IMG/VR virus record: IMGVR_UViG_3300033416_000030
Span: 1-25,647 of that record
Reading direction: 5' to 3' (one strand)
Length of the DNA stretch: 25,647 nt
From: a virus
Lineage: Duplodnaviria; Caudoviricetes
In this document: one piece after another, positions 202 to 19,017 of the stretch
Layout: each line of letters opens with the position of its first letter
How positions within the stretch are numbered: the stretch's first letter is position 1
Position numbers and translations under genes: made by a program
Notes under the pieces: model-generated
What the model was told of the DNA's origin: nothing
The model's input: only the letters and a program-made list of their open reading frames with translations
Databases searched by the model: none

Positions 202-1824
202 CTAACCGCTCCTCTTCGCGAGCCGCGCGAGCATGACATCGAGCCGGTACGACGTGGAATCGAGTTCCAGCGTGAGCACCGAATCGCCCTTACACGTCGC
301 CCTGAGCACGATGCAATCCATCTGCCCGTCCGGTAGTCCGTACAGTCTCACCATCTTGCCCGGGCGCACGTCCGGCGCGTAGACCTCCGCCCCGTTCACG
401 TCCAAGATGCGCCGCGTCGTGACCCTGCCCTTACCGCGCGCTCTGCCCTTCTCCGCGAGGAACACGAGCCCCACCGCCGACGCCGTCGCGCTCGATGACG
501 TGTCCAGCGACACATCGCCGTACCGCGTGATTCCCGCCGCGACGAGCGGGTGCGACGTGTCCGTGTCGAGCATGTCCTTGTTCAAGTCCGTGCCCGACTC
601 CGAGCGGTATCTCACCCTCACCGCCGAATAGAGTTCGTCGATGCCCGCCTCGTCCATATCGAACGACTCCGCCTCGTCCAGCCGCACGATGTAGTCGGGC
701 GTCGTGGACAGGGGCGACCAATGAGGGACGCACGCGGGGCCGACGCCCGCGACGCGCTCCATGTAGAACCCCCAACAGTTCGCGACGTGCTCCGTGAGCG
801 TGTCCAGTTTGCTTTTCGCATCGCTCGACTCGAACAGGAGCGGCTCGATGACGGTAGCCTCCGCGCCCACCCACGCTCTGTACGCGCTCCCGCTCGGCAG
901 GTAGTCGGTATCGACCTCATGGTCGAGGATGTCCTCGAACACGTTGTGCGTCGTAGGGCTCGTCACGCCCGATGCCCCGTACACCTTCGGGTTCGTTACG
1001 CTGATGCCGTAGTTCGCCGCCGGGACAGCATCGCCCGTGGGCGAGAACTGGAACATGAGGTAGCGCACGCTCGTTGCGCTTGCGTCCATCGCCTGCGTCG
1101 TGCCCGCGCTCCCCGTCACGTTGTCCAATGACCCGCCCCACGTCACCGGCTCGTCCGCCGCCGACGCCGTCGGGTTATGCACCCCCGCGTACACGTCCAT
1201 CTGTCCGTACGACGCCCACGCGTTGACCTCATATGTGCCCGTCACGCGCGCCCAGTTCGCGCTCGCGCCGAAGTCGTACACCCATCCCTGATAGTTCGCC
1301 GTCGTCCACTTGGCTGTCCCCGCGCCGCTGTCGTAGACCGCGTCCGCGCTCGCGGTGGTCGTCGTGATATAGAGCCTGTTGAAGTCCGACGTGAGCGACC
1401 ACGCCGATGTCCTGCTCTGCCGCCCTGTCTCCATCCACGCCGATGTCCGCGTGTCGCAGTACACGACGGCGCGCCGCCCGAGCGTCGTACACCATCCCCA
1501 CCCCGACGCCAACAACGGTTCGCCCCTGCCCGGACGCCGGATGACGATGCCCTGCCACACGATGCCCGTATCCCCATGCACCCTGAGCCTGCCACCGCGC
1601 ACCCACGCGCGCTCCTCGTCCGATAACTCGCACTCCACCGTCGCCTGCTCGTAGCCGAAGTTCAGCGTGCTTGAGAACTCCGGCGCGCTCAGCACCGTGA
1701 GCCGGTATTCCTCGCGCCCCGGAGGTTTGACCGTGACGACGAGACCATCGACCGACCTCCCCGCGAAGGTCGCGACGCCGCCCGCCGGGAGCGAGTCGAG
1801 GAGCCCTACGTCCCAAAGCGTCAT
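202..1824 (-). CDS. Tail tip / baseplate hub (Tal-like) protein
   Basis: 540 aa, second gene after the tape measure. Has VWQG and DVRPGKMVRL...RAT segments typical of hub proteins, plus a central Ser/Thr/aromatic-rich insert. Confidence 0.6.
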   Translation of the reverse strand: MTLWDVGLLDSLPAGGVATFAGRSVDGLVVTVKPPGREEYRLTVLSAPEFSSTLNFGYEQATVECELSDEERAWVRGGRLRVHGDTGIVWQGIVIRRPGRGEPLLASGWGWCTTLGRRAVVYCDTRTSAWMETGRQSRTSAWSLTSDFNRLYITTTTASADAVYDSGAGTAKWTTANYQGWVYDFGASANWARVTGTYEVNAWASYGQMDVYAGVHNPTASAADEPVTWGGSLDNVTGSAGTTQAMDASATSVRYLMFQFSPTGDAVPAANYGISVTNPKVYGASGVTSPTTHNVFEDILDHEVDTDYLPSGSAYRAWVGAEATVIEPLLFESSDAKSKLDTLTEHVANCWGFYMERVAGVGPACVPHWSPLSTTPDYIVRLDEAESFDMDEAGIDELYSAVRVRYRSESGTDLNKDMLDTDTSHPLVAAGITRYGDVSLDTSSSATASAVGLVFLAEKGRARGKGRVTTRRILDVNGAEVYAPDVRPGKMVRLYGLPDGQMDCIVLRATCKGDSVLTLELDSTSYRLDVMLARLAKRSG

Positions 1825-1827
1825 GAC

Positions 1828-3537
1828 CTATCCCGTCGCCGTGAGATAGCGCGGACGGTACGCCCATTCGATGCCGCCGCTCATGAACCCGTTAGCCGAA
1901 GCGTCCGCCTGTATCACCCCGAACACGATTCGGTTGTTGACTCCCGGCTTGAGCCGGAGCGGTCTGCGAATCTCGCACAGGTCGAACACCGCATTGCCGA
2001 TGCCGCCGGACGCGTTCGACAGATACGGCGTATCCGTGTCGCCGTCGTACCATATCGCCAAGTCGCCCGACGCCGAGCGACGATATACGACCGCCGCATA
2101 ATCGACCGGGACGCGCTGCACGTAATCGAGCCCGATGGTCGTAGCCGAGCCCTGAGCCGCATACACGGGGTTCGTGGTGTTGAACCCGACCGGGGTGGAA
2201 GCGAGGAGTTTGAAGTACAGGTCGTTGTTCGCTTCCGCCGCCCATACCCCGCCGACGCACGTAGACATCTTGCCGCCCGCCCACGAACCCACTGTGGAGT
2301 AGTACGGGTCGAACGCCCTGTTCGTGTCCCATACCACGATGCACGCAGGGTCGCCGGACGAGAGCATGTACGGGATGTGGAAGGTGACGGTGAACTCACC
2401 GCTCGCCGTGATATACGCCGTGCCGGAAGCCAGTCCGCTCCCCACCGGCACGTCCCCGCTCGCCTGATACAACGTCCCTGCGACACCGGCAGGGGTAGAG
2501 GCCGACGCCTTGAACGTGAACCCCGTCACGCGCATGTCCCCGCTCGCGGTGAACGATTGCCCCACATGGGTTATGGACGACGCGCTCAGGTCGCGCATCG
2601 CCGATGCCGTCGTGTTCTCGTAGAACGCCGAGGATGAGCCCCACCCGAGGTTCCCGATGCTCACGTCCGGCACCTGAGCGCACGGGATGGTCACGTCCCC
2701 TAACTCCACGCCCGTGAGCGCCGAGGCCGACAGCGAGCCCGAGCCCTCGTACACCGTCACCGACGAGGAGACGCCGTTTCCCGTGATTGTCGTCGCGCCC
2801 TGATACGTCGCCGCGTTCGTGCAGGCGCTCGCGTCCACGCGCGCGAGGAGCAGGCTCCGTCCCCTGTTCGCGTTCGTGTCCACGTTAGGCGGCGAACCCA
2901 CGACCGCCCCGCCCGCCGATGCCGTGAGGGTCGCCTTCGCCGAGTTGAGCGCGTTCGCGTCCGCCGTCCCCGAGTAGTCGTCGAGGTACGAGTACAGTGT
3001 GTCGGGGTCTGCCTTCACCCCTATCGCCAACAACGTCCCCGATGCCGACGGGCACGCGCGAATCGAAAGCAGCGCGTCCACCTCGCCCGTGATACCCGAC
3101 GCGTCGATATGTCCGGGGATGTACGTCAGTTCCCCGCTCGCGTTCGTTTCCGCGCTCCACGCGCCCAACCAGTACGGGTCTGTCGTAGCCGTCACCGAGA
3201 GGAGCACGCCGATTCCCTCGCGCGCCGACGGGTTGTACGTCGCTTCCTGCACCTTACACTCGCGCATCCTGCACGACAGCACGTCGCCCGACGCGCCGTG
3301 CCTGAAGTACAGGTAGTTGTCCCTCACGCCTTCACGCCTCAACAGCGCGACGTTGTCGTTCATATCCGCCGTGTCCGTACCCGTCACCCACACGTCGAAC
3401 GAACGCACCGCTGGCACATGCCCACCGTAACCGTCAGGTGCAGGTTCAGGGAACGAGGGCTTGCCCGTGAGGAAGTAATCGGTGGGCTCCTCGCCACTCT
3501 CGATGACGCACGAACCGACAGCCAGATAGAGCGTCAT
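1828..3537 (-). CDS. Distal tail (Dit-like) protein with inserted beta-rich, possibly carbohydrate-binding domain
   Basis: 569 aa, ATGA-coupled to the tape measure. DPYWLG near the N-terminus and LKPGVNNRI...YRPRYL at the C-terminus are Dit-like. Central HVGQSFT...DLYFK module. Confidence 0.6.
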   Translation of the reverse strand: MTLYLAVGSCVIESGEEPTDYFLTGKPSFPEPAPDGYGGHVPAVRSFDVWVTGTDTADMNDNVALLRREGVRDNYLYFRHGASGDVLSCRMRECKVQEATYNPSAREGIGVLLSVTATTDPYWLGAWSAETNASGELTYIPGHIDASGITGEVDALLSIRACPSASGTLLAIGVKADPDTLYSYLDDYSGTADANALNSAKATLTASAGGAVVGSPPNVDTNANRGRSLLLARVDASACTNAATYQGATTITGNGVSSSVTVYEGSGSLSASALTGVELGDVTIPCAQVPDVSIGNLGWGSSSAFYENTTASAMRDLSASSITHVGQSFTASGDMRVTGFTFKASASTPAGVAGTLYQASGDVPVGSGLASGTAYITASGEFTVTFHIPYMLSSGDPACIVVWDTNRAFDPYYSTVGSWAGGKMSTCVGGVWAAEANNDLYFKLLASTPVGFNTTNPVYAAQGSATTIGLDYVQRVPVDYAAVVYRRSASGDLAIWYDGDTDTPYLSNASGGIGNAVFDLCEIRRPLRLKPGVNNRIVFGVIQADASANGFMSGGIEWAYRPRYLTATG

Positions 3538-6500
3538 GATGCCCTCCCGAGCGCGAGCGCGGAACGAACCTCAGTTCGCAGCACGTCCTCCACCGCCTTA
3601 CGGATGACCGGCACGCTCGTCGCGTCCTGTGCCGTGACGTTGACCGTGTAGTTGTTCGTGGTCGTGGCGACCGGAGCGGGCGACTCCCCGGCGATACGGT
3701 CGAGCACGCCCGTGTCCAGCGTGAGCCGAGCCGCCACGTCGAGGGGCGGTATCTCCGGCATGAGCACGCTCGCGACGACCTGAAGCGGGATGGTCTCGGG
3801 TATCTCCGCCCCGAGCAGCGCCGACAAATCGAGCGGCCTGATGCGCTCCCGCTCCAATCCGAGCATGAACCCCGCGACCGCGTCCGCGCCCACGTCCGCC
3901 ATTTCCTGCGACGGGGACTTCGCTCTCAGTTCCTCGCGCATCCACCTCGGGACGTTGCGCGCCATACCCGTGACCGCGCTCTTGACCGTCGGAGTGCTCC
4001 CCCTGATGCCCTCTGCGAGCCCCGCGCCCACCGACGAGCCCACGCTCCGAATAGAGGACACATCCGCCCTCAACCACGTCGGCAGGTCGCGCCCGAGCCG
4101 CTGGACAGGTGCCTTTGCCGCGCCCGCGCCGCTCTTGACGCCCTCGCCGAGCGCCGCTCCGATGCCCTCACCGGTCTCGAACGCAAGCGCCTCATACTCC
4201 TTGCGCGCCTTGTCGAGTTCGCCTTTGAGCCGCGTCGCGCTCGCGCCGAGTTCCTCTATCCAAGACGGAGCCTCTTTCGTCCTCTTCGCCGTGGCGTGTT
4301 TCGATACGGCCTCTCCGTACTCCTTCTCCACCTCTGCGAGTTTCGCGGCAGCGAGCCTCCGCCGCTCCGCATATCGGTCGTCCTCTGTGACGCCCCTGTG
4401 CCGCACCGCCTCGAACTCGCTCTGTGCCTTGTCCAAGTCCTTCGCCACGCGCTCGCGTCGCGCTACCGCGTTCTCGTAGAACTTCCGCATCTTATCGACG
4501 GGGTTGTCCTTGTCCTTCTCGTGTGCGCGAACGTCGGAATCGGCCTCTGCGTACGCCTTGCGCGCTTTCTTTACCTTGTCTGCCGCGACCTTGAGCCGCG
4601 CCGCGTGCTCCTCGTCCGCCGTGATTGCCTTACGCCTCTTTGCCGCGACCGCCTCTGCCTTGCCCACATCCTCTGAGGTCGTGTACCGGAGGGAACTCCC
4701 GCGCGGCATATCCTTGTCTTTCGCGTACTTATCCCTGACCTTCGCGACGTTCCGCAACGCCGCCTCATACGACCGTTGCTGGCGCGTCACGTCCCGCGCG
4801 TCGAACAAATCCGACACGCCCTCCGCCACGAGTGCCACGTCCGAGCCGAACCCGCCCCACGTTTCGAGGACGGCCGTCGATATGCGAACCTTCGACCCGT
4901 CCTTCATGAGCCCGTCCGCGAACCCCGCTACCGTGTCCTCGCCGATGCCCTCCATGACCTTTGACGGGGACGAAATCTCCAACAGCACCCGCACCCACGC
5001 GGGGACAGCGTTCCCCAACGATGTTGCCGCCGCTTGCAGTTTCGCCCGTTCGTCGGGGCTCAACAGTCCACTCGTGAGCCCCTGCACGATGCCCGCACCT
5101 ACGCCGTACATCGTGCCGGGGATAGGCGCGAACGGTGAGGTCACGCTCGCGGCGAGGCCCTGTGCGGCAGTAGCAGCGTCGGGAGTACCTTGCTTGATAC
5201 CACGCGTGAGCCCAGCGGGGACGGCATCGCCCATGCGCCGGTAGTCCTCCGGCTTGAACGTGCGGGCGAGGGTCTCCGACACCTCCGCCGCCATGCTGAC
5301 GGTAGACTCCGTGACCGCCGAGGCGTTCGCTTCCATCGCCTCTGTCATGCGTGCAGCCGAACGGATGGTGCCGTTACGTGCGTCGATTACGTCGAGTTCC
5401 GCCTCGCGTATCTCGCGCGCGGTCGCCTTCGGGTTCTTGCGTACCTCCTTGAGCGCCTTCTCCGCGTCGATGAGCCGGAACTTCGCGCGCTCGTCCGCTA
5501 TCTGTGCATCGACTACGTCCAGCCCGGAGTCCCGCAGGATGTCGTTGGCGTCCGCCTGCGACAGAATCGCGTCCGTCGTGTCATCCGTCGCCCCGCCCAA
5601 TGCCGCCTGAGCCTTCGCGAACTCAAGCGCCGCGTCCTTTGCGGTCTTGCCGCCCTTTGATGCGTCTTGGAGCCCCTTGTACCACGCGCGTATCTGCGGA
5701 ATCGCCAGCGCTATCTGTCCGCTCATGAGCGTCAAACCGATACGCCACAACTGGGCGTTCGCGATGAACTTGCCCGCGCCTTCGCCCAACTTTGTGAACG
5801 TGTCGTTGAGTTGTGCCAGCCCGTACGCCGCCCGCTCCGACGCGGAACCCACCTGCACGAGCCCGTCGCTCAGCCCCTTCGTGAATCCCTTGGTGAAGGC
5901 CGTCACGAGGATGGAACCCTCTTTGACGATGGGCAGGAGTTCGGTGCCGATAGCGGTCTTGAGCGCCCTAATGGAGTTCTGCATCTTCTCCGTCGCGCCC
6001 TGCGTCGTGTCTCCATACGCCTTCGCCGCGCCCCGCGCGCGGTCTTGAATCATGCGTATGTATTCGAGCCGGTTCCCGCCCTCTTTCGCCTCGATGCCGA
6101 ACTGTTTGAGGACGCGCGTGTTGCCCGCGAGGACGAGCCCCAACTTCTGCGCCGACTGTGCCGCCGTCCAGTTCTTAGCCCGCGCAACGTCCGTGGCGAC
6201 GCCCATGAGGCGCATCGCCTGTTCCGAGTCCCCCGTCATCTGCACGAGCGTTGTGAACGCGTCGCGCAAATCCCCCTTGCCGAGCGCGGACAAATCCGAG
6301 AGTTCCCCTACGAGTTCCTTGACGCGGGGTTGCACCGTTGCGAACGAATCGCCTGCCGCCGTGACCGCCGCGCCCATACGCGCCCACGAGACCTCGGCCT
6401 TCATAGCGGCTGCGACCGATTCCTTCGCGAACTTCACGACAGCCGCGACCGAGAACGCCGCCGCCATCGGCCCCGCGAGCCCGAGCACCTGAGACTTCAG

Positions 6501-6599
6501 CGACTTCGTCGAGCCGCCGACCTCCTGAAACGCCTTCTTTGCGCCCGTGGAGTCGCCCCGGAACCGGAGGAGAAGGTCTTGCATCGACGTGGCTCCCAC
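3534..6599 (-). CDS. Tape measure protein
   Basis: 1021 aa, Ala/Gly/Lys-rich and helical. GNTRVLKQFGI motif, SPS motifs, C-terminal NNYTVNV. Follows tail tube and chaperones. Confidence 0.9.
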   Translation of the reverse strand: MGATSMQDLLLRFRGDSTGAKKAFQEVGGSTKSLKSQVLGLAGPMAAAFSVAAVVKFAKESVAAAMKAEVSWARMGAAVTAAGDSFATVQPRVKELVGELSDLSALGKGDLRDAFTTLVQMTGDSEQAMRLMGVATDVARAKNWTAAQSAQKLGLVLAGNTRVLKQFGIEAKEGGNRLEYIRMIQDRARGAAKAYGDTTQGATEKMQNSIRALKTAIGTELLPIVKEGSILVTAFTKGFTKGLSDGLVQVGSASERAAYGLAQLNDTFTKLGEGAGKFIANAQLWRIGLTLMSGQIALAIPQIRAWYKGLQDASKGGKTAKDAALEFAKAQAALGGATDDTTDAILSQADANDILRDSGLDVVDAQIADERAKFRLIDAEKALKEVRKNPKATAREIREAELDVIDARNGTIRSAARMTEAMEANASAVTESTVSMAAEVSETLARTFKPEDYRRMGDAVPAGLTRGIKQGTPDAATAAQGLAASVTSPFAPIPGTMYGVGAGIVQGLTSGLLSPDERAKLQAAATSLGNAVPAWVRVLLEISSPSKVMEGIGEDTVAGFADGLMKDGSKVRISTAVLETWGGFGSDVALVAEGVSDLFDARDVTRQQRSYEAALRNVAKVRDKYAKDKDMPRGSSLRYTTSEDVGKAEAVAAKRRKAITADEEHAARLKVAADKVKKARKAYAEADSDVRAHEKDKDNPVDKMRKFYENAVARRERVAKDLDKAQSEFEAVRHRGVTEDDRYAERRRLAAAKLAEVEKEYGEAVSKHATAKRTKEAPSWIEELGASATRLKGELDKARKEYEALAFETGEGIGAALGEGVKSGAGAAKAPVQRLGRDLPTWLRADVSSIRSVGSSVGAGLAEGIRGSTPTVKSAVTGMARNVPRWMREELRAKSPSQEMADVGADAVAGFMLGLERERIRPLDLSALLGAEIPETIPLQVVASVLMPEIPPLDVAARLTLDTGVLDRIAGESPAPVATTTNNYTVNVTAQDATSVPVIRKAVEDVLRTEVRSALALGRAS

Positions 6600-7179: not shown

Positions 7180-7710
7180 CTAGGTGCCTGCCTGCAAGTA
7201 CCGAATGAACTTCTTTCCCGCCGATGCGTCCACATCGACCATGACCTTGAACTTGACTTCGAGGATTTCCTGCTCCTTGCCGACCTTGCGCGTGGAGCCG
7301 GGGACGATGTTGCACTTGGTCGCAATCATCGTCGAAGCCGAGCCGTCGATGTACCACGGGTGCGTGACGATTGCATAGTTCGTGGGCGTCGTCGCCGATG
7401 CGTCGTTCGTGAGCACCGCCGCGCTGCCGGTCGTCCCGAACAGGAGCATCATCGCGCTCGATGTGACCTCTTCGAGTTGCAGCGTGATAGTCCCGTTGTA
7501 GCCGCTAACCGCCGTCCCGACCGTAGCGTCGTTGTACGCCGTGGAAGTCGCCTCAAGAATCTCCGCCGTGACCTCGAACGAGACCTCGCGGATAGAACCG
7601 AGCGACGAGACCGGTGCCACCATAGCCGACGCGCTCGTGGCGAGGGCGTAGCCGCTGCCCGTCGTGATGTAGCCCGCATAACTGGGACGGGTGAGGACAT
7701 AGTTACTCAT
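7180..7710 (-). CDS. Major tail tube protein
   Basis: 176 aa beta-rich protein with a strong AGGAGG RBS; position before chaperone and tape measure; followed by a hairpin. Confidence 0.7.
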   Translation of the reverse strand: MSNYVLTRPSYAGYITTGSGYALATSASAMVAPVSSLGSIREVSFEVTAEILEATSTAYNDATVGTAVSGYNGTITLQLEEVTSSAMMLLFGTTGSAAVLTNDASATTPTNYAIVTHPWYIDGSASTMIATKCNIVPGSTRKVGKEQEILEVKFKVMVDVDASAGKKFIRYLQAGT

Positions 7711-8657: not shown

Positions 8658-9122
8658 CTACTGCTGCCCGTAGTCGTACGCGAAGTCGTCCGAGACATAC
8701 CTCGGGAACGCGGTCACCGCGCCCGCGCCGCTCACTCCCGGCACGCCGATGTCCGGCGCTTCCGTGAGGTTCGCGTTCTCCAGCAACTTCGTCATGATGC
8801 TCTGCGCTTCATCCAACAGCATATCGACCGCCGCATTGGGCGGGATGCCCTGCCCGAGCGCGAGCACCTGATACACGTTCGCCGCTGCCCTTCGTTCCGA
8901 GACCGCCGTGAGCAGGTACACGGTCATCGTATCCGTCACGGGCAGCGCCCACCCGTCCCCCGTGAGTTCCGCGTCGATGAGCGCCGACTCCTCCTTGAGC
9001 CGAATGTCCACCGCCGACGCGGAGGGCTCCGAAGAGGAGTTGAGCGTGAACGCGTTGACGTACCGCTGCACCCCCGCCGTCGTCCCGTACGTCACGCCCG
9101 ACGAATCCAGAGGCCATCCCAT
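8658..9122 (-). CDS. Head-tail adaptor (Mu gp36-like)
   Basis: Start reassigned to ATG 9122 (TAATG overlap with upstream stop). YGTTAGV...IDAEL...WALPV pattern; sits directly before the gpG-like gene. Confidence 0.65.
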   Translation of the reverse strand: MGWPLDSSGVTYGTTAGVQRYVNAFTLNSSSEPSASAVDIRLKEESALIDAELTGDGWALPVTDTMTVYLLTAVSERRAAANVYQVLALGQGIPPNAAVDMLLDEAQSIMTKLLENANLTEAPDIGVPGVSGAGAVTAFPRYVSDDFAYDYGQQ

Positions 9123-9984: not shown

Positions 9985-11381
9985 GAGGGAATCCCCACCC
10001 TCGCCGTCAACGTCGTGTCCCCTGTCTCAGCGATACATGACAGGTAGATAGCGGTGACCCCCGCGCCCACCGCGAGTGAGGATGCCCATGTGGTGCCGTC
10101 CGTAGACAGAGCGAACCGCCCCGAGTGGACGCCGTCGAAGATGACGCTTCCCGCTACCGGAGTCACCACATACGCCACCGCTGTGACCCGCGTTCCGATG
10201 GGAGGTCTGACGGTGATTGTCGAACCGTACTGTCGCCAGTACGCGTTCTGCACGACGGTGAGCCCCGCGCTCGTGCTGTAGCCCGACGCCGTGAACGCCG
10301 CCGTCGAAGCGAACACCGCCGCCCTGATGTCCCCGAGCAGCGCACCGCTGATTGTGAAGTAGTAGAGTTCGCAATCCTCGTTGTACGCGTCCGGGTGCCG
10401 CTCCACGAATACGCAGATTGCCGAACTGTCAGCCGACTCGCTCACGTACGGATACCCGTAGAAAGAGTAGTCCGCGTCGGGCGTCGGACGCACGAACGAA
10501 TGAGCGAGCGTCCACGCCGTATTCGGGCTCGCCATGACGCCCGTGAACGAACCGGTGAACACCTTGAGCAAATCCCCCAGCGAACTAGCGGACGGGATGG
10601 TGCCGTATCGTCGTTCTCCCCCGAACAGGTACAGCGTCGATGTCTCGTAGTCCGCCATAATCCACGGCGCGCTCATCCAATACGAGGACAGATTCGTAAG
10701 TACTGTTCTCGCACCCCAAGTGGAACCGCCGTCCGTGGAGCGGTAGCACCAATACCCCGGAGAGCCATACACCTCATGTCTGCACACCGCGACCATCGAA
10801 CTCGCGTTCAGATGCACGATTGCAGGTTCGCTAATGTTCCCGTCCGTACTGACGACCTTGCGGTACGCCGAACTGTTGGGCCATGTCACGCCGTCGTCCG
10901 AGAACCAGAGTTCCACCCTGCTCAGGTTGTATGCCGCCGTGTAGTATTTCCCATTCGGGTGCATCCTGAGCGGACCGAACCACACGACCATCGAACCCAT
11001 ATCGAGCAGGCTCCCCGCCGCCCACGTCGCCCCGTCATCGTCCGAATACGTCATCCATGACGACACATGCAGCGACGTGGTCGCGTTGTAGAGCCGGTAG
11101 AAGATGACGATTCGCCCCGATTGCAACCGCCCGCCCGCGATGTTCCGCGTGTCGTATGTTGCATCGTCCGCAACGACCGTGTATGACGCGTTCCATGTGA
11201 CCCCGTCGTCCTCAGACCACGTACATACGACCTTGCCCGCATTGCCCGTGTGCCCGCCCGATGCTCCCGCGTCCAAGCGATACACATACAGCACACGCCC
11301 CGCCCCGAGGCGGATAGGCAGACACTCGCTCTCATGGTCTGCCGTTATGAGCCCGCTCGCGTTAGCGGAGAACGTCGCCAT
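9981..11381 (-). CDS. Asp-box (BNR) beta-propeller, sialidase-like virion protein
   Basis: Asp boxes SEDDGVTW, SDDDGATW, SDDGVTW and STDGGSTW; also DTRN, SEP and YGYP motifs. Confidence 0.75.
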   Translation of the reverse strand: MATFSANASGLITADHESECLPIRLGAGRVLYVYRLDAGASGGHTGNAGKVVCTWSEDDGVTWNASYTVVADDATYDTRNIAGGRLQSGRIVIFYRLYNATTSLHVSSWMTYSDDDGATWAAGSLLDMGSMVVWFGPLRMHPNGKYYTAAYNLSRVELWFSDDGVTWPNSSAYRKVVSTDGNISEPAIVHLNASSMVAVCRHEVYGSPGYWCYRSTDGGSTWGARTVLTNLSSYWMSAPWIMADYETSTLYLFGGERRYGTIPSASSLGDLLKVFTGSFTGVMASPNTAWTLAHSFVRPTPDADYSFYGYPYVSESADSSAICVFVERHPDAYNEDCELYYFTISGALLGDIRAAVFASTAAFTASGYSTSAGLTVVQNAYWRQYGSTITVRPPIGTRVTAVAYVVTPVAGSVIFDGVHSGRFALSTDGTTWASSLAVGAGVTAIYLSCIAETGDTTLTARVGIPS

Positions 11382-11384: not shown

Positions 11385-12707
11385 CTATCCCCAACCGGAC
11401 GAGAGCGCCTCGTACTGCACGTCGTCGAGGCAGAAGTTCATAGCCCACGAAGTCGTCGCGTCCCCGAAGGCGAGTTTCCAGTCCCCCGTACCTCCTCTTG
11501 TGGTGCTCAGTGTCACCCAGTCCATCGTCCACCACAGGTTCCCCGAAGGCCCCACCATGAGCCTCCATCTGTCATTCGCAGGGTCTATCTCCACCTCGAA
11601 CCGGCAGGTGTCTCCGAGGTGGATGGTTCCGGTATGGGGACTGGAACCCGCTGTTGTCCATGCCGATGCTGATGCACCGCTACCGTTGTAATAACGCACG
11701 TCTGAACTATTCCAGTAATAACAGACGACCTGCGCTGACCCGTCCGTCGCGGACGCCGTTATGTTCACGCCGATACACATGTTCGTCCAGTTCACATCCA
11801 ACGCCGATGCGCCTGCTGATGCGTTGGTGAGGTTGAAGTGGGCGACAGCCACTCCCGAGCAGTTCTGCAACGTGATTTCGGTTATGACCTGCCCCGAACT
11901 GTCCGTCTTGATTGGCAGTTTGCCGTGGACGAGCGCTATGTTCGCGCTCGCGGACGTGGTGAGGATAGCCAACGAGCCGCCGCTCGCCGTGACCGTACCG
12001 CCCGCAGACGAGCCCGACGCGCTCGTGATTACCCGCCACTTGTCCGTATCGAGCGTGTCGCATGTGTCCGACCAGAAGTCCGATGCGCTCGCACTCGTCG
12101 TCGCGCTTGCTGTCGCGTAGTTCGCGGAGTCCGTGTACGCGCCCGACCCGTCCGCCTTGATTCGATAGCAGTACGCCGTCCCGCTCGATTGCCCCGTCAT
12201 CGTGTACGACGATGCGGTAGTGGTGAACGTGTTTCCGTACGACGCCGACGCTGAGGTAGACCACTCCACGATGTAGTACGACGCGTTCGCCACATACGCC
12301 CACGATATGACGTTGCCCGACGCCGAGCCCGCCGACGCCGTGAAACTCCCCACGTCACCCACCGCCGCCGTAGCCGACAGCGAGCCCGATGTCGTGAACG
12401 TGCCCGCGCTCGCCTCCGCCACCGTGACCTGTTTGAAGTACACCGGTTTGTTGACGTAGGAGAACAGAGGTGCCGTCGCCGACGCCGACCACGCCGACTC
12501 GTCCCATGACACCTGTACGCCCGACGAGCACACGAATGTGACCGCGCCCGATGCGCCGTACTCCGCCGACGACGAACACCGCATGAACGCCGAGGCGGTC
12601 GTTGACAGCGCCGAAAAGATGATGGGCTGTGTCAGCGCGCCGCTGTTCGAGACCGCCGTCCCGTCCACACCTGCGGTCGTGCCGCCCTCAACGATGCTGA
12701 GTGCCAT
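11385..12707 (-). CDS. Ser/Ala/Thr-rich virion protein with fibronectin type III domain and C-terminal lectin-like beta-sandwich
   Basis: ISWAYVANASYYIVEWS...SYTMTGQSSGTAYCYRIKA is FN3-like; DFWSDTCDTLDTDKW...LDDVQY frames a jelly-roll-like domain. GGAGG RBS. Confidence 0.65.
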   Translation of the reverse strand: MALSIVEGGTTAGVDGTAVSNSGALTQPIIFSALSTTASAFMRCSSSAEYGASGAVTFVCSSGVQVSWDESAWSASATAPLFSYVNKPVYFKQVTVAEASAGTFTTSGSLSATAAVGDVGSFTASAGSASGNVISWAYVANASYYIVEWSTSASASYGNTFTTTASSYTMTGQSSGTAYCYRIKADGSGAYTDSANYATASATTSASASDFWSDTCDTLDTDKWRVITSASGSSAGGTVTASGGSLAILTTSASANIALVHGKLPIKTDSSGQVITEITLQNCSGVAVAHFNLTNASAGASALDVNWTNMCIGVNITASATDGSAQVVCYYWNSSDVRYYNGSGASASAWTTAGSSPHTGTIHLGDTCRFEVEIDPANDRWRLMVGPSGNLWWTMDWVTLSTTRGGTGDWKLAFGDATTSWAMNFCLDDVQYEALSSGWG

Positions 12708-12716: not shown

Positions 12717-13061
12717 CTACGCGGGGTCGCCGATTGTGAGCGTCCCCGAATCGACCGTGTAGATGCCGCCACCTGAGCCGTAAACGGTCGGTGTCACATC
12801 ATCCGTGAGGTACTGCATACCGCCTGAGATTGCCGAATAGCCCGCGACCTTCGCGACCGTGAACGACTTGACCGTGAACGACAGCGTCCCCGAGAACGAC
12901 ACCGCTCCCCCCGCCGCCGTTCCCCACACTATCGCCTGCCGCGCATATCCCGAACTCGAACACTCCACGCCCGACGCGTTCAACAGCGCGCAATGGGTCG
13001 TCACGCCCGCCGTAGCCGACGCCTGTACCGTCTTCGCCGCCGTCGTGACCGTGGTTGCCAT
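12717..13061 (-). CDS. Small virion structural (fibre/decoration-associated) protein
   Basis: 114 aa; E..SSGYARQAIVW motif of a kind seen in small phage structural proteins. Confidence 0.6.
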   Translation of the reverse strand: MATTVTTAAKTVQASATAGVTTHCALLNASGVECSSSGYARQAIVWGTAAGGAVSFSGTLSFTVKSFTVAKVAGYSAISGGMQYLTDDVTPTVYGSGGGIYTVDSGTLTIGDPA

Positions 13062-13076: not shown

Positions 13077-14840
13077 CTACCAGCGAACGTGCCGCTCTTT
13101 CCCTATCCTGAGCCTTCTGACGAGCACAACGAGGCTTTGTCCGACATTCCTCGGCATGTACGTCCTCTTGGGAATCTGCTTGCCTTCGATTAATCGTCCC
13201 CCGTCATGACGCGTCGGGACGAACTGCTGTTCCAAACGAGGGCGCGTGAGCGACGGCATTTCCAAGGGCTCGGACACCATGAAATCGACCTCGCCGGAGC
13301 GCATCGCCAATGCCGCGTCGTCCACCGACAACACATGCCATTGACCGAGCGCGACCTCGCCGCTCACGATGCCGATGAAAGCATCGTCGATGTCCAATAC
13401 CGCCGCGCCCGGAAGCGACTGGTCGAGCGCGACCTCCTCGCTCGTCACCGGGAGCACCGACGCATCCACCGCGAGCACATGCCGCTGAATGAGCGTGACC
13501 GTTTCCGATTCGAGCCCCAACGCCGAATCGTCCACCGCGACCGCGCCGTGCTGTACGAGCGCGACCTCTTGAGAGGTCATCGGCAATCTGCTCGCCGCGA
13601 TGCCGAGTTCGCCCGTCACCGTGACCTCTAACGTGACCTGCCCCGACGTGAACGGTAGCCGTGACGCATCGAGCGCGAGGACGTGCCTCTGCCCGAGTGC
13701 GACCTCTTCGCTCGTGACCTCTGACGAGGCGTCCCCCACCGAGAGCACATGATGATGCGTGAGCGCGACGTTCTCCGACGCCATGCCCAACGCGCAATCG
13801 TCCACGACGAGCACATGCCGCTGGGAAAGCACGACCTCCTGTGATGTCCACGTGATGTCCGCACCATCCACGCCGATGACGTGGCGCTGAGCGAGAGCGA
13901 CCTCGCCCGACGTAGGTTGCAGGTCTGCCGCACCTATCGCGAGCGTGTGCCGCTGGGCTAGGACGACCTCACCGGACTTCGGGGAGAGGACTGACGCCGC
14001 CACCGCCAGCGTGTGCCTTTGCGCCAGCGCGACCGTGTCGCTCCGCATATGCGCCGACGAATCCGCTACCGCCACGAGGTGTCGTTGTGCGAGAGCGACG
14101 GTGTCGCTTCTCATGTGCGCCGATGAGTCGGCGACTTCCAACGTCAGTTCAACAGACGGCTCGTGCTGGACTAGCGCGACCTCGTCGCTCCTCATGTGTG
14201 CCGAGGAGTCGCCCGCTGCTATGATGTGTCGCTGTGCGAGCGCGACCTCATCCGACCGCGCGTGCGCCGACGAGTCCGCGATTGTGAGCGTGTACCTTTG
14301 TGCGAGCGCGACCTCGCCGCTCGTCATGTGCGCCGAGGAGTTGCCCACGACCAGCGTCTGGTAGAACAGGACTTCCAGATACGCCTGCGTGATTACGATG
14401 GTCGGGTTCGCGTCGTTCGCCTTGAACCCGAAGTTAGCGAGCGCGTTGACCGAGGCAGGCGTCCACGGTATCGACCCGGACGGGTTGCTCGTCCAATCCC
14501 GCTGGAAACTCGCTATGTTCGCCGAACCGTTCGCCAGCACCGCCGAGGCGGAGAGGTATCCCGAGTTGTTTATCCAGAACTGAAGGCTGTTGGTGCTCGT
14601 GCCGTTCTTATACCCGCGCGCGTACATCGAGACTCTGATAGCCGACGCATCGGCAGGTACATCGAACGCCGTGAAGCCGAACGATATTCCCCCCGCCGTC
14701 GTGCCGTGCGTGACGTAATCGCCATGCCCCGACAATGGCGGGGCGTCGTCGAGCACCCCCCAGACCGTCGTCCCCGTGCTGGGAGTCCACGTCTGCGAAC
14801 TCGCCGCGCTACTTGTCGGCGAGCGAGTCTGAGTGCTCAT
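13077..14840 (-). CDS. Fibre-like protein: N-terminal globular domain plus 16 tandem ~22-aa repeats
   Basis: 587 aa; repeats such as TLEVADSSAHMRSDTVALAQRH; basic C-terminal tail. Confidence 0.7.
   Translation of the reverse strand: MSTQTRSPTSSAASSQTWTPSTGTTVWGVLDDAPPLSGHGDYVTHGTTAGGISFGFTAFDVPADASAIRVSMYARGYKNGTSTNSLQFWINNSGYLSASAVLANGSANIASFQRDWTSNPSGSIPWTPASVNALANFGFKANDANPTIVITQAYLEVLFYQTLVVGNSSAHMTSGEVALAQRYTLTIADSSAHARSDEVALAQRHIIAAGDSSAHMRSDEVALVQHEPSVELTLEVADSSAHMRSDTVALAQRHLVAVADSSAHMRSDTVALAQRHTLAVAASVLSPKSGEVVLAQRHTLAIGAADLQPTSGEVALAQRHVIGVDGADITWTSQEVVLSQRHVLVVDDCALGMASENVALTHHHVLSVGDASSEVTSEEVALGQRHVLALDASRLPFTSGQVTLEVTVTGELGIAASRLPMTSQEVALVQHGAVAVDDSALGLESETVTLIQRHVLAVDASVLPVTSEEVALDQSLPGAAVLDIDDAFIGIVSGEVALGQWHVLSVDDAALAMRSGEVDFMVSEPLEMPSLTRPRLEQQFVPTRHDGGRLIEGKQIPKRTYMPRNVGQSLVVLVRRLRIGKERHVRW
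13281..14357 (-). repeat. Coding tandem repeat, ~66-nt unit, 16 degenerate copies
   Basis: Recurring gagcgcgacctc-like core on + strand; 22-aa period in the translation. Confidence 0.9.
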
Positions 14841-14847: not shown

Positions 14848-15222
14848 TTAGGGAGCGGTCGGCTGCGCGATGCTGATGACCCACGCCGGGAAATCGACCG
14901 TGTTCCCCGCGCCGAGCGGCTGCGACGTTCCCGTCGTCACGAACAACAGCGCACCGTCCGCGCCCGTCGTGAGCGCGACATGATTGAACGTGCCGCTCGT
15001 GTCTACCGTCACGCCCGACGCAGTAGCCGTCGTGACCTTGCGACCCGAACCGTCCGCCGCAATCGTGTAGTCCGCCGACGCTGTCGTGTGCGCCGCGAGT
15101 TTGTTCGCGCTCGCATCTGCAATCGTGTACGCCGATGAGTTCAGCGCCCACATCGCGAGGGCACCGGTCTTGATTGCGCTCAGCCCTCCGTCCAATACCG
15201 TGTCCGCCGCGAATCTCGCCAT
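14848..15222 (-). CDS. Small virion structural protein
   Basis: 124 aa, Ala/Thr/Gly-rich; VLDGGL...SGRKVT...NTVDFPAW; AGGAGA RBS. Confidence 0.6.
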   Translation of the reverse strand: MARFAADTVLDGGLSAIKTGALAMWALNSSAYTIADASANKLAAHTTASADYTIAADGSGRKVTTATASGVTVDTSGTFNHVALTTGADGALLFVTTGTSQPLGAGNTVDFPAWVISIAQPTAP

Positions 15223-15231: not shown

Positions 15232-16491
15232 CTAACTTCGAGGTGCGATGACGGCATCGTCGATGCCCAGAACGATGTGCTCCTTCTGCTCCCACACGGG
15301 ATGCTTGAGGTTGCCGTACTCGTCGAACAGATGCTCGGGGCGTCCCTCTGCCACGAGCCCGTCGAACCGGTGCCTGTCCATGCCGAGGTAGTCGAGCAGT
15401 TCGTCGATGTTCTGCGGGTACTCCAAGTCGTACCAGCGCACGAGTTGTACCGCCAAATCGCGGTCGATGACGCCCGCCCTGATGTCCTGCGACGCCGCGA
15501 ACGACGCCCGCCCCAGCCCGGTCTTGTTCACGGCTGTCCAGTAATGCGCGGTGTCGATACCATCGTCGATGCTCGAACCCGTCGTGTAACTCCCGCTCGT
15601 CCGCGTCGGTGACGGGTTGAAGCCCCTCATGCCCGCGTACAGTTCGTTCCCGCGCACGCTCCACGGGACGTAATAGCCGAGGTAATGCACCTGCACCTCC
15701 CCGATGTCCCGCACCGGCATGTACAGGTTCAGGTCAGCCATCGAGAACCCGTATGACTCCCTGAGTTCCTTGAGCGATGCCCCGCCGAACTTCAGCGCCT
15801 CAAGGTTCTCGTACGTGAACACGGCCTTGTTCCGGAGCGATGTCTGCGTGTCCGCGATAGGCCCCGCGCCGTGGTCTGCGAAGTGCTCGCCGTAGAACAC
15901 GAGGTTCACGCCGTGGTCGTTCGCCGCCCTCGGGCCGATGTTCTGCTGCATGATGACCCACGGCTGGAACGGGTGCAGCAACCGCTCGAACGCGAGCCGC
16001 GTGAGCACCTGATGCACCTCGCCGCTCGGCTTGTACGCGACGTTCGGGTACGACTCGCACCACGCTTTGAAGTTCCTGAGCCCCGCCTCCGTGGGGATGG
16101 TGGGCGGTGCCGTCACCGTGAGCGGGTGCATCCCGAACTCGTCTTTGAGGACGTGCGCCTGAAACACGGAGTCCTTGCCGCCCGAGCCGGGGACGATGCA
16201 ATCGAATCGCCCGTCGTCCCGACGATGCGTATCGCACAACTGTTCGAGTTCCTTGTACCGCGCGTCCCAGTCGATGAGCCGCTTCGCGTCGTCTATCCTG
16301 CACGCGTCGCAGAGCCCGTCCTCCCCGATGACGAGCGTATCGACCGTGTTGTGCTCCGGGTCCACCTCGTGTTCCCGCCGTGACTGGGCGCGCTGGTTCG
16401 ACGTGACGCACCGCTTGCAGTACACGACCTCCGTGGGTAGTCCATACCGTCCCGTGCTTCCCGTGCTCTGATGCTTCTGCACTTCTACCAC
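15232..16491 (-). CDS. N-acetyl sugar amidotransferase (WbuX/WbpG/PseA-like, PP-loop ATPase)
   Basis: N-terminal CKRC...CDAC, FDCIVPGSGGKDS PP-loop, GMHPLTVT, FYGE, HYLGYYVPW, SIDD, GLGRA...SQDIRAG.I.R. Confidence 0.9.
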   Translation of the reverse strand: MVEVQKHQSTGSTGRYGLPTEVVYCKRCVTSNQRAQSRREHEVDPEHNTVDTLVIGEDGLCDACRIDDAKRLIDWDARYKELEQLCDTHRRDDGRFDCIVPGSGGKDSVFQAHVLKDEFGMHPLTVTAPPTIPTEAGLRNFKAWCESYPNVAYKPSGEVHQVLTRLAFERLLHPFQPWVIMQQNIGPRAANDHGVNLVFYGEHFADHGAGPIADTQTSLRNKAVFTYENLEALKFGGASLKELRESYGFSMADLNLYMPVRDIGEVQVHYLGYYVPWSVRGNELYAGMRGFNPSPTRTSGSYTTGSSIDDGIDTAHYWTAVNKTGLGRASFAASQDIRAGVIDRDLAVQLVRWYDLEYPQNIDELLDYLGMDRHRFDGLVAEGRPEHLFDEYGNLKHPVWEQKEHIVLGIDDAVIAPRS

Positions 16492-16498
16492 TCCCTAC

Positions 16499-17398
16499 CT
16501 AGTGTACGGCGCACAGGCGAGCCGCCTGCCGCTCCTTGTGTAGCGCCTCGCAATATTCGAGGTCGCTCCTGAGCCCCTCCGCGTCCTTCATCGCGTCCAC
16601 GCGGAGGTAGTACATCGCTGCCTCTATCTGAGCCTCGTTCGGCTCGTCCCGCCACTCCTTGAACAGTTCCGTCATCTGTGTCATCCGTCGCTGCTCCTCC
16701 GGATGCTTGTCGTCCCAATCGCGGAACACGCTCTTGAACTCCGGGTTGTTGATACGCATCATGGGCGGCTCGTGGAGCAGGCTGAACGAGCATCCCGACA
16801 ACACGGAGTAGTACGTGTAACTCCCAATCTCGTTCGACACGACATGCCGCGCGCCCGTCATCGCCAACACCTGACGTTCCAAGAACGCCTGCTGGTTGAC
16901 GTGCCCGAAGCACACCGTCTTGAACGGGAAGTAGTCTGCCGCTCCCCTGTCAACGTCGTTCCAGTACAGCGCGACCGTGACAGGCCGGGGCAAGTCCCTG
17001 CACAAATCCGCGAACGCGCCCCAGTCGTAGTCCATATCGTAGAGATTCGTCGAGTGCTGCGGCATGACGAGCGTACCCCGCCGCTCGCGCGTGTGCGGGT
17101 ACGTCCGCAACGCGTACACGTACGGTGCCGCGCACGGCACGACCTCCTTGTACTGCGACCAGACCGTGTCCCGATGCGCAGGCCAGTTGAGCACCGCCGA
17201 GCAGCCCGGAGCCTGAGCCTCGCCGGGGAAGACGTGGTCGTCCTCGTAGAACACCCCATGCGGGATGACCGCGTGTATCGGCTTGTCCAGCGGATACCCC
17301 GAGAACAGTTTGAGCGTCCTCGCGTTACCGTAATTCGCATTAGGCCAGTAACGCTCGACCTTGTCGTTAGGTATAGGGTTGACGTGCGTGAGCCCCAT
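16499..17398 (-). CDS. Hypothetical protein, putative glycosyltransferase-like (resembles ORFs of polysaccharide loci)
   Basis: 299 aa; NYG, IPHG, APYVY, GTLVMPQHST, VALYWND, FGH...FL and SNEIGSYTYYS motifs suggest a two-Rossmann (GT-B-like) layout. Directly upstream of the amidotransferase. The CDS is secure; the function is inferred. Confidence 0.5.
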   Translation of the reverse strand: MGLTHVNPIPNDKVERYWPNANYGNARTLKLFSGYPLDKPIHAVIPHGVFYEDDHVFPGEAQAPGCSAVLNWPAHRDTVWSQYKEVVPCAAPYVYALRTYPHTRERRGTLVMPQHSTNLYDMDYDWGAFADLCRDLPRPVTVALYWNDVDRGAADYFPFKTVCFGHVNQQAFLERQVLAMTGARHVVSNEIGSYTYYSVLSGCSFSLLHEPPMMRINNPEFKSVFRDWDDKHPEEQRRMTQMTELFKEWRDEPNEAQIEAAMYYLRVDAMKDAEGLRSDLEYCEALHKERQAARLCAVH

Positions 17399-17401
17399 GC
17401 T

Positions 17402-17575
17402 TCACTCCTTGGGCCGGAGGCTCGTCCTCTTCACGACGAGCATCTGGTCGTTCTCTATCGCCTCTGCCTGCTCCTGCGTGACCTCGTACGTCTTCGGCTT
17501 CGGGCCGAACACGAGCCCCGCGCGGTGGAACTCATCCGTGGGGCACGCCTTTATCGTCGATACCGTAATCCTCAT
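17402..17575 (-). CDS. HI1506-like / Mu gp35 N-terminal-like small protein
   Basis: Not in ORF track (57 aa). MRITVSTIKACPTDEFHRAGLVFGPKPKTYEVTQEQAEAIENDQMLVVKRTSLRPKE has the F.RAG..F...Q...I..D.ML.V pattern. GGAGG RBS; follows the capsid gene as in Mu-like phages. Confidence 0.75.
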   Translation of the reverse strand: MRITVSTIKACPTDEFHRAGLVFGPKPKTYEVTQEQAEAIENDQMLVVKRTSLRPKE

Positions 17576-17598
17576 TCCGTCCTACCTCCGTCATGCAA

Positions 17599-17634: not shown

Positions 17635-17655
17635 GAGTGCTGGACTTTGTCAGTC

Positions 17656-18549
17656 CTACGCGAACGCGCCGTAGATGAGTTGCGGGAATCCGGGCTGGAA
17701 CGTGTAATCCGCCTCGGTGCCGAACAGGTACTCGCCTGTCTTGAACACGTACGAGTCGTCCAGCGACGTGACCGACACGAACTCCGGAGCCTTGCGCTCC
17801 TGCAACAGCACGGGGCCGATGCCCTTGCCCGCGTCCACGAGGAACCATGCGGACGCATTGGTGAGTTGCGGCATTACGACGAGTTCGAGGTTGAACCTGC
17901 CGATGACGTTGGGTGTCGCGTTCGTTGCGCCGACCTTCACGTCCGAGTAGATGAGTTCCCACGCGGTGTCCGCGAGTTCGAGCGGCACGATGAGGTGCGT
18001 CGGCTTGACGCCGATGATGCGCCCTGCGTCGTCCGTGTACCCGCGCATCGTCTGGTAGCCCAACTGCAACGAACCGGCAGCGAGGGCTGACGCCGTGTTG
18101 TTCGAGTACGTCGTCGCGCCGACCGGATGGTCGGTGTCCACGAGGTACTGACCGTCGAAGCACACCGTGGTCGATGCGTTCGTGAGCAGCGTCGCGAAGG
18201 TGCGGGTGTAGTGGTTCTTCGCCTCTGCCGCCATCGCCTGAATGAGCGGGCGATAGATGCCGAGGTTGTCCGACTCGAAGTCGCGGCGCTTGACGCCGAG
18301 TGTGTTCTCGTACTCGACCGACGTGACCGAGAACGATGACGCCGTCACGTTCTTTATGAACTTCTCGCCTACCCACTGGCGCGTCGCAGGAAGCGACTCA
18401 AGCCAGTTGTAAGTGACCGTGGGCGTATTCGCCGGAACGTACATGCACAACGGCTTCGGGTCAACGTCCTCATACTTCGTGAACGACGCCTCGAAGAGTC
18501 CCTTGAACTCCTCGAATGCCCCGTCCAGAGCAGCCTTGTTCAGAATCAT
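17656..18549 (-). CDS. Major capsid protein, Mu gpT-like
   Basis: YNWL...RQWVGE, YENTLGVKRRDFESDNLGIY, CFDGQYLVDTDHPV, PTHLIVP, AWFLVD and LQERKAPEF motifs; AAGGAGG RBS. Confidence 0.93.
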   Translation of the reverse strand: MILNKAALDGAFEEFKGLFEASFTKYEDVDPKPLCMYVPANTPTVTYNWLESLPATRQWVGEKFIKNVTASSFSVTSVEYENTLGVKRRDFESDNLGIYRPLIQAMAAEAKNHYTRTFATLLTNASTTVCFDGQYLVDTDHPVGATTYSNNTASALAAGSLQLGYQTMRGYTDDAGRIIGVKPTHLIVPLELADTAWELIYSDVKVGATNATPNVIGRFNLELVVMPQLTNASAWFLVDAGKGIGPVLLQERKAPEFVSVTSLDDSYVFKTGEYLFGTEADYTFQPGFPQLIYGAFA

Positions 18550-18567
18550 TGGTGAGTCACCTCCTTA

Positions 18568-19017
18568 TCAGGTCACGACGTTGGTGTAGTAGGTCATATC
18601 GACGCGGCAGGTCGTCGCTGAAGGCACCTCAACGATGAGCCCTGCCCCGATGTCGCCGGATGCCGAAGCCTTCGGGCCGAGCGTGGCGTTGTCCACGATT
18701 GCCGGGGACGTGCCGATGTCCGCGAGCGTGAGCGTGCCCGAGTAGTTCACGAGGAACGTGCCCGTTCGCTTCACCTTGACGCGGTTCGCTTCTGCGTTGA
18801 CCGTCCCGACCACGGCGGTGTCCGCACCCCCGGTCGAGTAGTTGCAAGCGACGCCGACAAAGATGTTCGCGCTGTTGTCCGTCGCCGCTTCCGCGAGCCC
18901 GGACGCGTTGAGCATAACCATCGTGCCAGCGTAGATGGTCTCACCGGACGCGGTGTTGAACCATCCGTAATCGCCGTCCGCGAACTGTGGGTCGCGGTCT
19001 GCTGTGACAGCAGTCAT
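18568..19017 (-). CDS. Capsid cement / decoration protein
   Basis: 149 aa; TIYAGTMV..NASG.A, FVGVA, ADIG...VDNAT; lies between protease and capsid; AAGGAGG RBS. Confidence 0.7.
   Translation of the reverse strand: MTAVTADRDPQFADGDYGWFNTASGETIYAGTMVMLNASGLAEAATDNSANIFVGVACNYSTGGADTAVVGTVNAEANRVKVKRTGTFLVNYSGTLTLADIGTSPAIVDNATLGPKASASGDIGAGLIVEVPSATTCRVDMTYYTNVVT

Follow-up and report, generated by a model that had tools for sequence, protein, structure and literature searches.

Glycosylation of phage particles has been described in a few mycobacteriophages (Che8, Corndog and Myrna), in which phage-encoded transferases modify capsid and tail tube proteins (Freeman et al. 2023, as cited in PMC11256854, PMC10877033 and PMC12363180; also PMC12582341; papers given by PMC number are cited from partial text). 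A related system is proposed here for the uncultured tailed phage of IMG/VR record IMGVR_UViG_3300033416_000030, all 25,647 nucleotides of which were analysed (the window): its virion proteins carry an excess of the tripeptide Ala-Ser-Ala/Gly (A-S-[AG]), and a cassette behind the major capsid gene encodes a predicted 299-residue transferase and a predicted 419-residue sugar amidotransferase. In Che8 the glycan is reportedly attached at the C terminus. The window resembles the Che8-type systems in its phage-encoded transferase (predicted from a GT-B fold and family context), its siphovirus layout and its probable actinobacterial host. It differs in that the capsid ends in GAFA and the probable tube in QAGT, whereas the Che8 termini are TGS and DGS, and in that candidate sites are internal and many, whereas Che8 virion proteins have no such excess (15 sites versus 10.7 expected, 1.4-fold). 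No homology to Che8 gp110, Corndog gp38 or the Myrna enzyme was found: the 299-residue protein gave no match when 50,697 phage records, Che8 included, were searched with tblastn at E 0.01.

Flagellin O-glycosylation with pseudaminic or legionaminic acid (FlmG, Maf; acetamidino groups from PseA-, PtmG- or WbuX-type enzymes) is similar in its many sites (Ser/Thr) on a filamentous assembly at the surface and in cytoplasmic nonulosonate transfer, which is proposed here as well. FlmG also has a GT-B domain, but requires tetratricopeptide repeats (TPRs) for substrate binding and modifies Thr (PMC7591256), whereas the window enzyme has no TPR and its candidate sites are Ser only, in a linear motif, on many unrelated proteins. 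For nonulosonate protein transferases no sequon is known (PMC12645811, PMC7591256). PglL of Burkholderia and Neisseria shares the preference for Ser alone, with Ala at -1 and often further flanking Ala (PMC8423747, PMC12645811). PglL is, however, a periplasmic membrane enzyme that uses lipid-linked glycans and disordered regions, whereas the window sites are in folded beta-sandwich domains, and no membrane O-oligosaccharyltransferase gene was found among the 26 window proteins scanned. In searches of the open-licence literature, no listed paper reported either an internal sequon or a nonulosonate for phage virions. What the window would add to known virion glycosylation is an internal [TSGDN]-A-S-[AG] motif in a phage that combines a Mu-type head with a Dit-type tail tip, an uncharacterised nonulosonate-linked transferase paired with an amidotransferase, and kin with a terminal-Ser alternative.

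The A-S-[AG] motif in the virion proteins

In all 26 window proteins, taken without selection, 70 A-S-[AG] sites were counted versus 16.6 expected. ASA (40 versus 9.7, p 3e-13) ranked first of 8,000 tripeptides and ASG (30 versus 7.0) third, the second rank stemming from a 587-residue repeat protein. Fifteen predicted outer proteins, picked by gene function after the counts had been seen, contained 64 sites versus 11.2 expected (about 6-fold), and the other 11 proteins contained 6 versus 5.5. The window is a tailed-phage virion module, encoded on the minus strand in the order terminase to tail tip (Mu-type portal, MuF, protease, gpT capsid, accessory genes, neck, tube, tape measure, Dit, hub). 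The source record (G000) consists of these bases alone; one end falls inside the terminase gene, and the non-virion part of the genome is outside the window. Features in positions 202 to 19,017 were as follows, with A-S-[AG] sites observed versus expected (shuffle mean).

202..1824, minus strand: tail-tip hub/Tal-like protein, 540 residues; role from position after Dit, no family match, 13 homologs; 7 versus 0.9
1828..3537, minus strand: evolved distal tail protein (Dit), 569 residues; identified by structure model, 16 homologs; 16 versus 1.6
3534..6599, minus strand: tape measure protein, 1021 residues; PHROG tail length tape measure matches; internal control, 2 versus 2.7
7180..7710, minus strand: probable tail tube protein, 176 residues; role from gene order, no family match; 3 versus 0.5
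9122..9697, minus strand: virion accessory protein, 191 residues; weak phrog_1627 and CarboxypepD_reg matches below cut-off; 4 ASG versus 0.4
9981..11381, minus strand: BNR beta-propeller (sialidase-like), 466 residues; PF13088 above cut-off; 3 versus 1.2, not significant
11385..12707, minus strand: FN3-containing accessory protein, 440 residues; nearest Atlas clusters are FN3 proteins, scores <0.9; 17 versus 2.4, the densest
12717..13061, minus strand: small head-associated protein, 114 residues; phrog_240 head protein; 2 versus 0.5
13077..14840, minus strand: repeat protein, 587 residues; 2 versus 1.6, both in the N-terminal domain, not enriched
14848..15222, minus strand: small accessory protein, 124 residues; homologs in 28 viral loci; 3 versus 0.6
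15232..16491, minus strand: WbuX-type N-acetyl sugar amidotransferase, 419 residues; TIGR03573, PDB 8wex; 0 sites
16499..17398, minus strand: uncharacterised GT-B protein, 299 residues, candidate writer; structure model and family context; 0 sites
17402..17575, minus strand: 57-residue protein between the capsid and transferase genes; weak FluMu_N match below cut-off
17656..18549, minus strand: Mu gpT-type major capsid protein, 297 residues; PF10124, PDB 9jod and 8rkc; 2 (Ser154, Ser233) versus 0.3
18568..19017, minus strand: virion structural (cement/decoration-like) protein, 149 residues; phrog_1731; 4 versus 0.3

Among the remaining proteins the adaptor had 1 site, the portal 1 (0.5 expected) and the protease 3 (0.7 expected); the terminase, the MuF protein and the hydrolase had none, like the two enzymes listed above. 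An earlier label of 'BppU-like' for 9122-9697 had no family match above cut-off behind it.

Same-letter permutations remained near expectation (AAS 4, SAA 3, AGS 5, SAG 8, SGA 7, GAS 8, GSA 9; 6.4 or 4.8 expected). Thr was not interchangeable with Ser (ATA 8 versus 6.5 and ATG 1 versus 5.0 in 13 outer proteins), other X-S-[AG] classes were far lower, and the sites were more numerous than AS and S[AG] pairs would produce by themselves (odds ratio 3.3, p 6e-9, all proteins). The excess persisted when residues were shuffled within local stretches of 10 and 20 (six proteins tested), and was restricted to the coding frame, with 5.0 sites per kb in outer genes versus 0.5 in others and 0.3-1.7 in the other frames of both. 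The 15 outer proteins were not enriched in N-X-S/T sequons of the N-glycosylation (HMW1C/NGT) type (N-[not P, A]-[ST] 28 versus 22.9; NAT 3 versus 1.8). The motif is therefore a protein-level one, specific for serine, order and frame, with no excess in internal and non-virion proteins. Because 56 of the 64 outer sites had T, S, G, D or N at position -2 from Ser (38% background), the fuller motif was written [TSGDN]-A-S-[AG].

A sequence-only reading of the same DNA had first pointed to the tripeptide. Every one of its hand counts was reproduced on recount, which added 12717-13061, 13077-14840 and the adaptor to the proteins it had listed, and its view that composition alone does not explain them held under the shuffles it had named as a check; Dit alone has ASG 10 times and ASA 6 times, with GSA and A-T-[AG] once each. 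Its statement that the motif marks surface virion proteins stood for the outer set taken together and did not extend to the propeller or the 587-residue repeat protein.

The Dit assignment was confirmed by structure, its AlphaFold model (pLDDT 84) matching the Bxb1 tail tip and SPP1 Dit. Among 16 aligned Dit homologs, which showed 26-45% identity, one was enriched (P0170, 10 versus 1.5), the other 15 having 0-4 sites; two of 13 hub homologs were enriched (P0183, 9 versus 1.4; P0187, 6 versus 1.0), the other 11 having 0-2. P0170 and P0183 agree in source, number of contigs and length of the longest contig (19,704 bp), and so probably come from one second phage. These three were enriched 6-7-fold, mostly at different sites, and exceeded the 1.8-fold background of the 26 non-rich homologs pooled (43 versus 24.1) with p 4e-4, 1e-3 and 1e-2; they were less clear-cut than the window Dit (9.7-fold). 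The generic background in homologs and control phages was 1.4-1.8-fold (phage Cline 14 versus 9.2, 1.5-fold), and the window was still enriched when set against the 1.8-fold level (p 6e-15). The preference for T, S, G, D or N at -2 recurred in 22 of the 25 sites of the rich homologs. Four Dit sites were common to the window and P0170, and two hub sites each to the window and P0183 or P0187; pairwise, 1-2 hub sites were shared.

The Dit motif serines are residues 83, 134, 147, 166, 207, 237, 272, 312, 332, 345, 360, 371, 379, 490, 510 and 547, and for 7 of these 16 sites no homolog had the motif at the aligned column. Where most homologs have D-A-D-G the window Dit has N-A-S-G-G, and the cement has NASG where a phage Cline homolog (30% identity) has NATG. 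Motif columns were more variable than average (majority share 0.43 versus 0.57) and poor in bulky hydrophobic residues (0.13 versus 0.31; other serines 0.10). This pattern fits surface positions, and motif Ser were not distinct from other Ser in this respect. Because P0163 and P0170 fall in an unresolved fork of the Dit tree and a quick hub tree places P0183 away from the window protein, independent gain of the motif in the rich homologs is suggested.

Predicted enzymes behind the capsid gene

The cassette is part of the virion operon. Behind the capsid gene follow the 57-residue, 299-residue and 419-residue open reading frames and then the accessory virion genes, with gaps of 3, 7 and 9 bases; a promoter and terminator scan of 14700-19100 gave nothing above shuffles. 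The 419-residue protein passed TIGR03573 (WbuX; 241.6 bits, cut-off 203.2) and matched PDB 8wex, a solved N-acetyl sugar amidotransferase, at E 7e-98, with its CxxC pairs and SGGKDS aligned, so that the four-cysteine zinc motif and the PP-loop are present. Enzymes of this WbuX/NASAT family make an acetamidino group on surface sugars, require an N-acetyl sugar and have a described zinc motif (PMC10607449). From its family, the 419-residue protein is predicted to make acetamidino out of an N-acetyl group. The closest copies in bacteria (48%) are in loci of legionaminate type, next to genes for LegB, NeuB, NeuC, WbuZ, HisH and a cytidylyltransferase.

The 299-residue protein had no Pfam, PHROG or NCBIfam match and belongs to a family of 2,088 clusters that has no Pfam model; a profile search of the family against PDB sequences also gave 0 matches. 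Its model (pLDDT 97) has a GT-B fold spanning residues 13-292. The top fold matches were Bcs3, TarL and TagF (Z 9.4-10.2, root-mean-square deviation 4.1-4.7, 235-249 residues aligned, 6-12% identity), trailed within 1 Z unit by uridine diphosphate N-acetylglucosamine 2-epimerases. These three enzymes release cytidine monophosphate (CMP), but their donors are cytidine diphosphate (CDP)-polyols; moreover the 299-residue protein has no Pfam Glyphos_transf match, and its family neighbours are nonulosonate genes. Among 25 family members scanned, 22 of which were chosen for length, 6 carried a fused GT2, GT4 or GT41 domain and 7 a fused methyl- or sulfotransferase, and TPRs were limited to some fused bacterial members.

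In 401 genomes from the class of G006, a metagenome-assembled genome of the Actinomycetota, a strong NeuB match (E below 1e-40, a cut set here, counted by hand) was present in 14 of 16 genomes with the family versus 52 of 385 without it, a contrast inflated by kinship. The family gene and NeuB were within 10 kb of each other in 9 of the 16, and neighbours named by NCBIfam were PseB, PseG, PseI and WbuZ. Because the family tracks NeuB, a CMP-nonulosonate donor is proposed, which also fits the neighbouring amidotransferase, and the 299-residue protein is a predicted CMP-nonulosonate transferase, its fold and neighbourhood being observed. The family, with the motifs N-x-x-Y-G, P-H-G, P-x-H-S-T and G-H-x-x-D, is a candidate new class of pseudaminate/legionaminate transferases.

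Separately, the sialidase-like propeller 9981-11381 shares the operon with the predicted nonulosonate transferase, and could bind or cut a nonulosonate on the host surface.

Relatives and other features of the window

Because Dit homologs occurred in 4 of the 401 genomes, the host is probably a member of the class of G006. Two relatives with modules from terminase to lysis, G002 and G003, had no match to the transferase family and no motif excess (9 versus 9.3 and 15 versus 10.3 sites in the loci counted), the outcome that the sequence-only reading had expected of relatives without the enzymes. G001, G004, G005 and four prophage regions, all partial, likewise had neither the transferase family nor an excess. 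Of 28 loci found through the 124-residue protein (one being G003 again), 0 were enriched at p 0.001 and none had either enzyme.

A 1.7-kb contig (L002) encodes an HK97-type capsid (3 sites versus 0.83), a 57-residue open reading frame and a 58% transferase homolog in the same order as the window, with an unrelated capsid. Viral scans with the transferase, alignment A1, the capsid, the amidotransferase and the L002 capsid found no second long contig with the transferase. A degenerate DNA pattern search gave 8 loci, none encoding the family, and a distant family member, the amidotransferase and Dit had no match in the 50,697 phage records. A GTDB scan for the transferase returned bacterial loci only, and in the 16 positive genomes from the class of G006 the family loci looked bacterial among the 15 listed.

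Other transferase-like genes were found behind the capsid gene in three relatives: GT2 in G001, Glyphos_transf in G054 and a pair with no Pfam match in G178. None of these three had a serine motif. Their capsids end in Ser, as do the Che8 capsid and tube, whereas those of G002, G003 and G005, which have no cassette, end in A, A and G. This suggests that the slot behind the capsid gene contains virion-modifying cassettes in this group and that the window phage uses internal rather than terminal sites. The three related phages or prophages with transferase-like genes behind a Ser-ended capsid (L016 4667-5791, L025 2929-4044, L027 4077-5222) are candidates for Che8-type glycosylation outside the mycobacteriophages. 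No other X-S-Y motif was strong in 8 relatives, the best being ESG (7 versus 1.3) and ASV (8 versus 2.5) in L011, not significant after 400 tests. In an unrelated phage (L084 5678-11197) the capsid gene is directly followed by a large gene resembling a glycosyltransferase and by several genes for metabolic enzymes, with no A-S-[AG] excess.

Several further features of the window were recorded. Compared with Mu gpT (9jod), the last two blocks of the capsid 17656-18549 are swapped in order; compared with Pseudomonas phage capsids it is collinear. The cement 18568-19017 was not equated with the JBD30 minor capsid protein, having 0 matches against PDB sequences. The repeat protein 13077-14840 (minus strand) has ~26-residue repeats containing VALAQRH; its G003 relative has H-T-H repeats, and similar His-containing repeat proteins adjoin the 124-residue gene in several unrelated phages. 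The C-terminal domain of the MuF protein 20882-22591 (minus strand) matched XopAD-family profiles below cut-off and no Pfam model. Its Y-x-G-x-N ... ELQFHT stretch we take to be RelA/SpoT-like (Apk2-type alarmone synthetase of MuF toxins), and the 86-residue open reading frame behind it (20517-20777, minus strand) may encode an immunity protein. An alpha/beta hydrolase of ~170 residues (22579-23091, minus strand) lies between the portal and MuF genes, an unusual place.

Explanations for the motif

The explanation favoured here, with moderate confidence, is that A-S-[AG] is an internal O-glycosylation sequon for a nonulosonate-type coat served by the phage cassette. Direct transfer of the nonulosonate to Ser by the phage transferase is put forward tentatively, as possible rather than probable; a nonulosonate capping a first sugar laid by another enzyme is considered quite unlikely. 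It is doubtful that the fullest form applies, in which the whole exterior is coated with an amidinated sialic-acid-like sugar, the stand-alone GT-B enzyme reads [TSGDN]-A-S-[AG] in any folded protein, and kin switch between C-terminal Ser and internal sequons by cassette. The sequence-only reading had called the motif an O-linked acceptor: its protein-level, Ser-specific, virion-confined and lineage-specific nature and the predicted glycan enzymes of 15232-17398 agree with that, and the modification itself stays at the level of a prediction.

The proposed route would start from a motif with the specificity described above, most of its sites appearing as lineage-specific gains at variable, non-hydrophobic positions. 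The 299-residue protein, whose bacterial homologs keep company with genes for pseudaminate/legionaminate synthesis, would act as a CMP-releasing, TagF-type GT-B enzyme. In the cytoplasm of the late-infected cell it would take host CMP-nonulosonate and load serines in short turns, and the amidotransferase would alter the sugar by turning N-acetyl into acetamidino. If a denser coat is favoured by selection, new A-S-[AG] sites would become fixed in whichever loops are exposed. The coat would alter surface charge and protect the particle against proteases, grazers or unproductive binding, or would make it resemble the host surface.

A number of observations weigh against this proposal. The motif is a textbook type I beta-turn sequence, it is in 1.8-fold excess in the 26 non-rich homologs, and the ratios in all 29 homologs vary continuously between 0 and 6.8 (heterogeneity p 0.023, modest). 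In the Dit model, the structural check named by the sequence-only reading, motif Ser were in loops in 11 of 16 cases versus 22 of 41 for other Ser (p 0.38), which neither refutes exposure of the sites nor reaches significance. The propeller (p 0.12) and the repeat protein are both probably exposed and were not enriched, and the internal protease, outside 202..19017, had p 0.03, not significant after 26 tests, which counters a simple rule of all exposed proteins. The accessory proteins of G003 had 9 sites versus 3.0 without a cassette, with p 0.004 raw and 0.09 against the 1.8 background; the G003 homolog of the FN3 protein 11385-12707 has 5 sites. A single motif-rich genome is known with the cassette, and no long contig beyond the window joins transferase and virion genes; L002 is the sole second contig of any kind to do so, and its 3 sites give p about 0.05. 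The C-terminal Ser pattern involves three homologous capsids and is one observation, not three independent events. As to the enzymes, the fold matches are modest (TM 0.3-0.42; Z 9-10), the 299-residue protein lacks a TPR domain, and the window contains no HisH/HisF (WbuY/WbuZ) partners, although HisH/HisF-like genes lie beside bacterial copies of the amidotransferase, nor any nonulosonate synthesis genes or priming transferase, the non-virion part of the genome being outside it. The bacterial homologs of the transferase are in surface-polysaccharide loci, and the usual acceptor of the family in bacteria is probably polysaccharide rather than Ser; this is the chief obstacle to the idea of direct transfer to Ser.

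The alternative that survives best, though it is unlikely, is that the motif is a real enzyme-recognition site written by a host enzyme or by a phage gene outside the window, the cassette acting on host surface polysaccharide (receptor masking) or on DNA. The polysaccharide loci of the bacterial homologs fit this, as does a window that stops in the terminase gene, with nothing further in the source record. In two phages whose capsids are unrelated, however, the cassette directly follows the capsid gene within the late virion operon, and relatives probably of the same host class have no excess. Virion proteins do not reach the periplasm before lysis, which counts against a PglL-type writer. Ala-flanked Ser is also preferred by PglL-type enzymes, but PglL acts in the periplasm (PMC8423747).

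It is rather improbable that the motif has no reader and reflects the way beta-sandwich tail proteins are built (type I turns, small residues), amplified by lineage-specific drift in favour of Ser and Ala. In the model most Dit sites come 1-4 residues past a strand end, the 26 homologs, Che8 and Cline all have a low-level excess and the homolog ratios are continuous. [DNST]-A-S-G fits type I turn preferences, but ASA (36 sites) is not among the preferred ends of turns, and homologs of the same fold have other turn sequences at the same columns. The excess recurs in ten unrelated proteins within a single genome, permutations, A-T-[AG] and other X-S-[AG] classes being far lower, and it survives both local shuffles and the homolog background.

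It is very improbable that the serine bears another modification, such as phosphorylation or a polyol-phosphate derived from a CDP donor, or that the motif serves to dock a decoration or assembly protein. The CDP-polyol phosphotransferases Bcs3, TarL and TagF are the best fold matches and one relative has a Glyphos_transf-like gene behind its capsid, but the family neighbourhoods indicate nonulosonates, the paired WbuX requires an N-acetyl sugar (PMC10607449), and 70 scattered sites exceed stoichiometric docking.

A DNA-level signal, codon bias or assembly artefact has a negligible chance. Ala and Ser are most often encoded by GCG and TCG, hence some shared 9-mers (maximum 7 copies), but the frame test refutes such a signal. 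The 64 outer sites are encoded by 31 different 9-mers using both Ser codon boxes, in agreement with the earlier statement that this is not a DNA repeat, and codon use is like that in the other genes. Runs X2 and X3, from two studies, contain stretches identical to the Dit gene, and therefore no assembly artefact is involved.

In its fullest form the glycosylation proposal would make this virion the first known to be nonulosonylated, and the enzyme the first nonulosonate transferase to read a portable linear sequon. With an internal sequon spread over head, tail and tail tip the coat would be dense: 2 sites per capsid subunit alone would give about 830 per particle, assuming a 415-subunit head like that of JBD30 (PMC11445458). 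A small soluble enzyme with a four-residue tag could be used to attach sialic-acid-like sugars to proteins or display particles of choice. The modification would be readable from phage protein sequence, and the window offers a first functional lead for a transferase family of >2,000 clusters that has been without a Pfam model.

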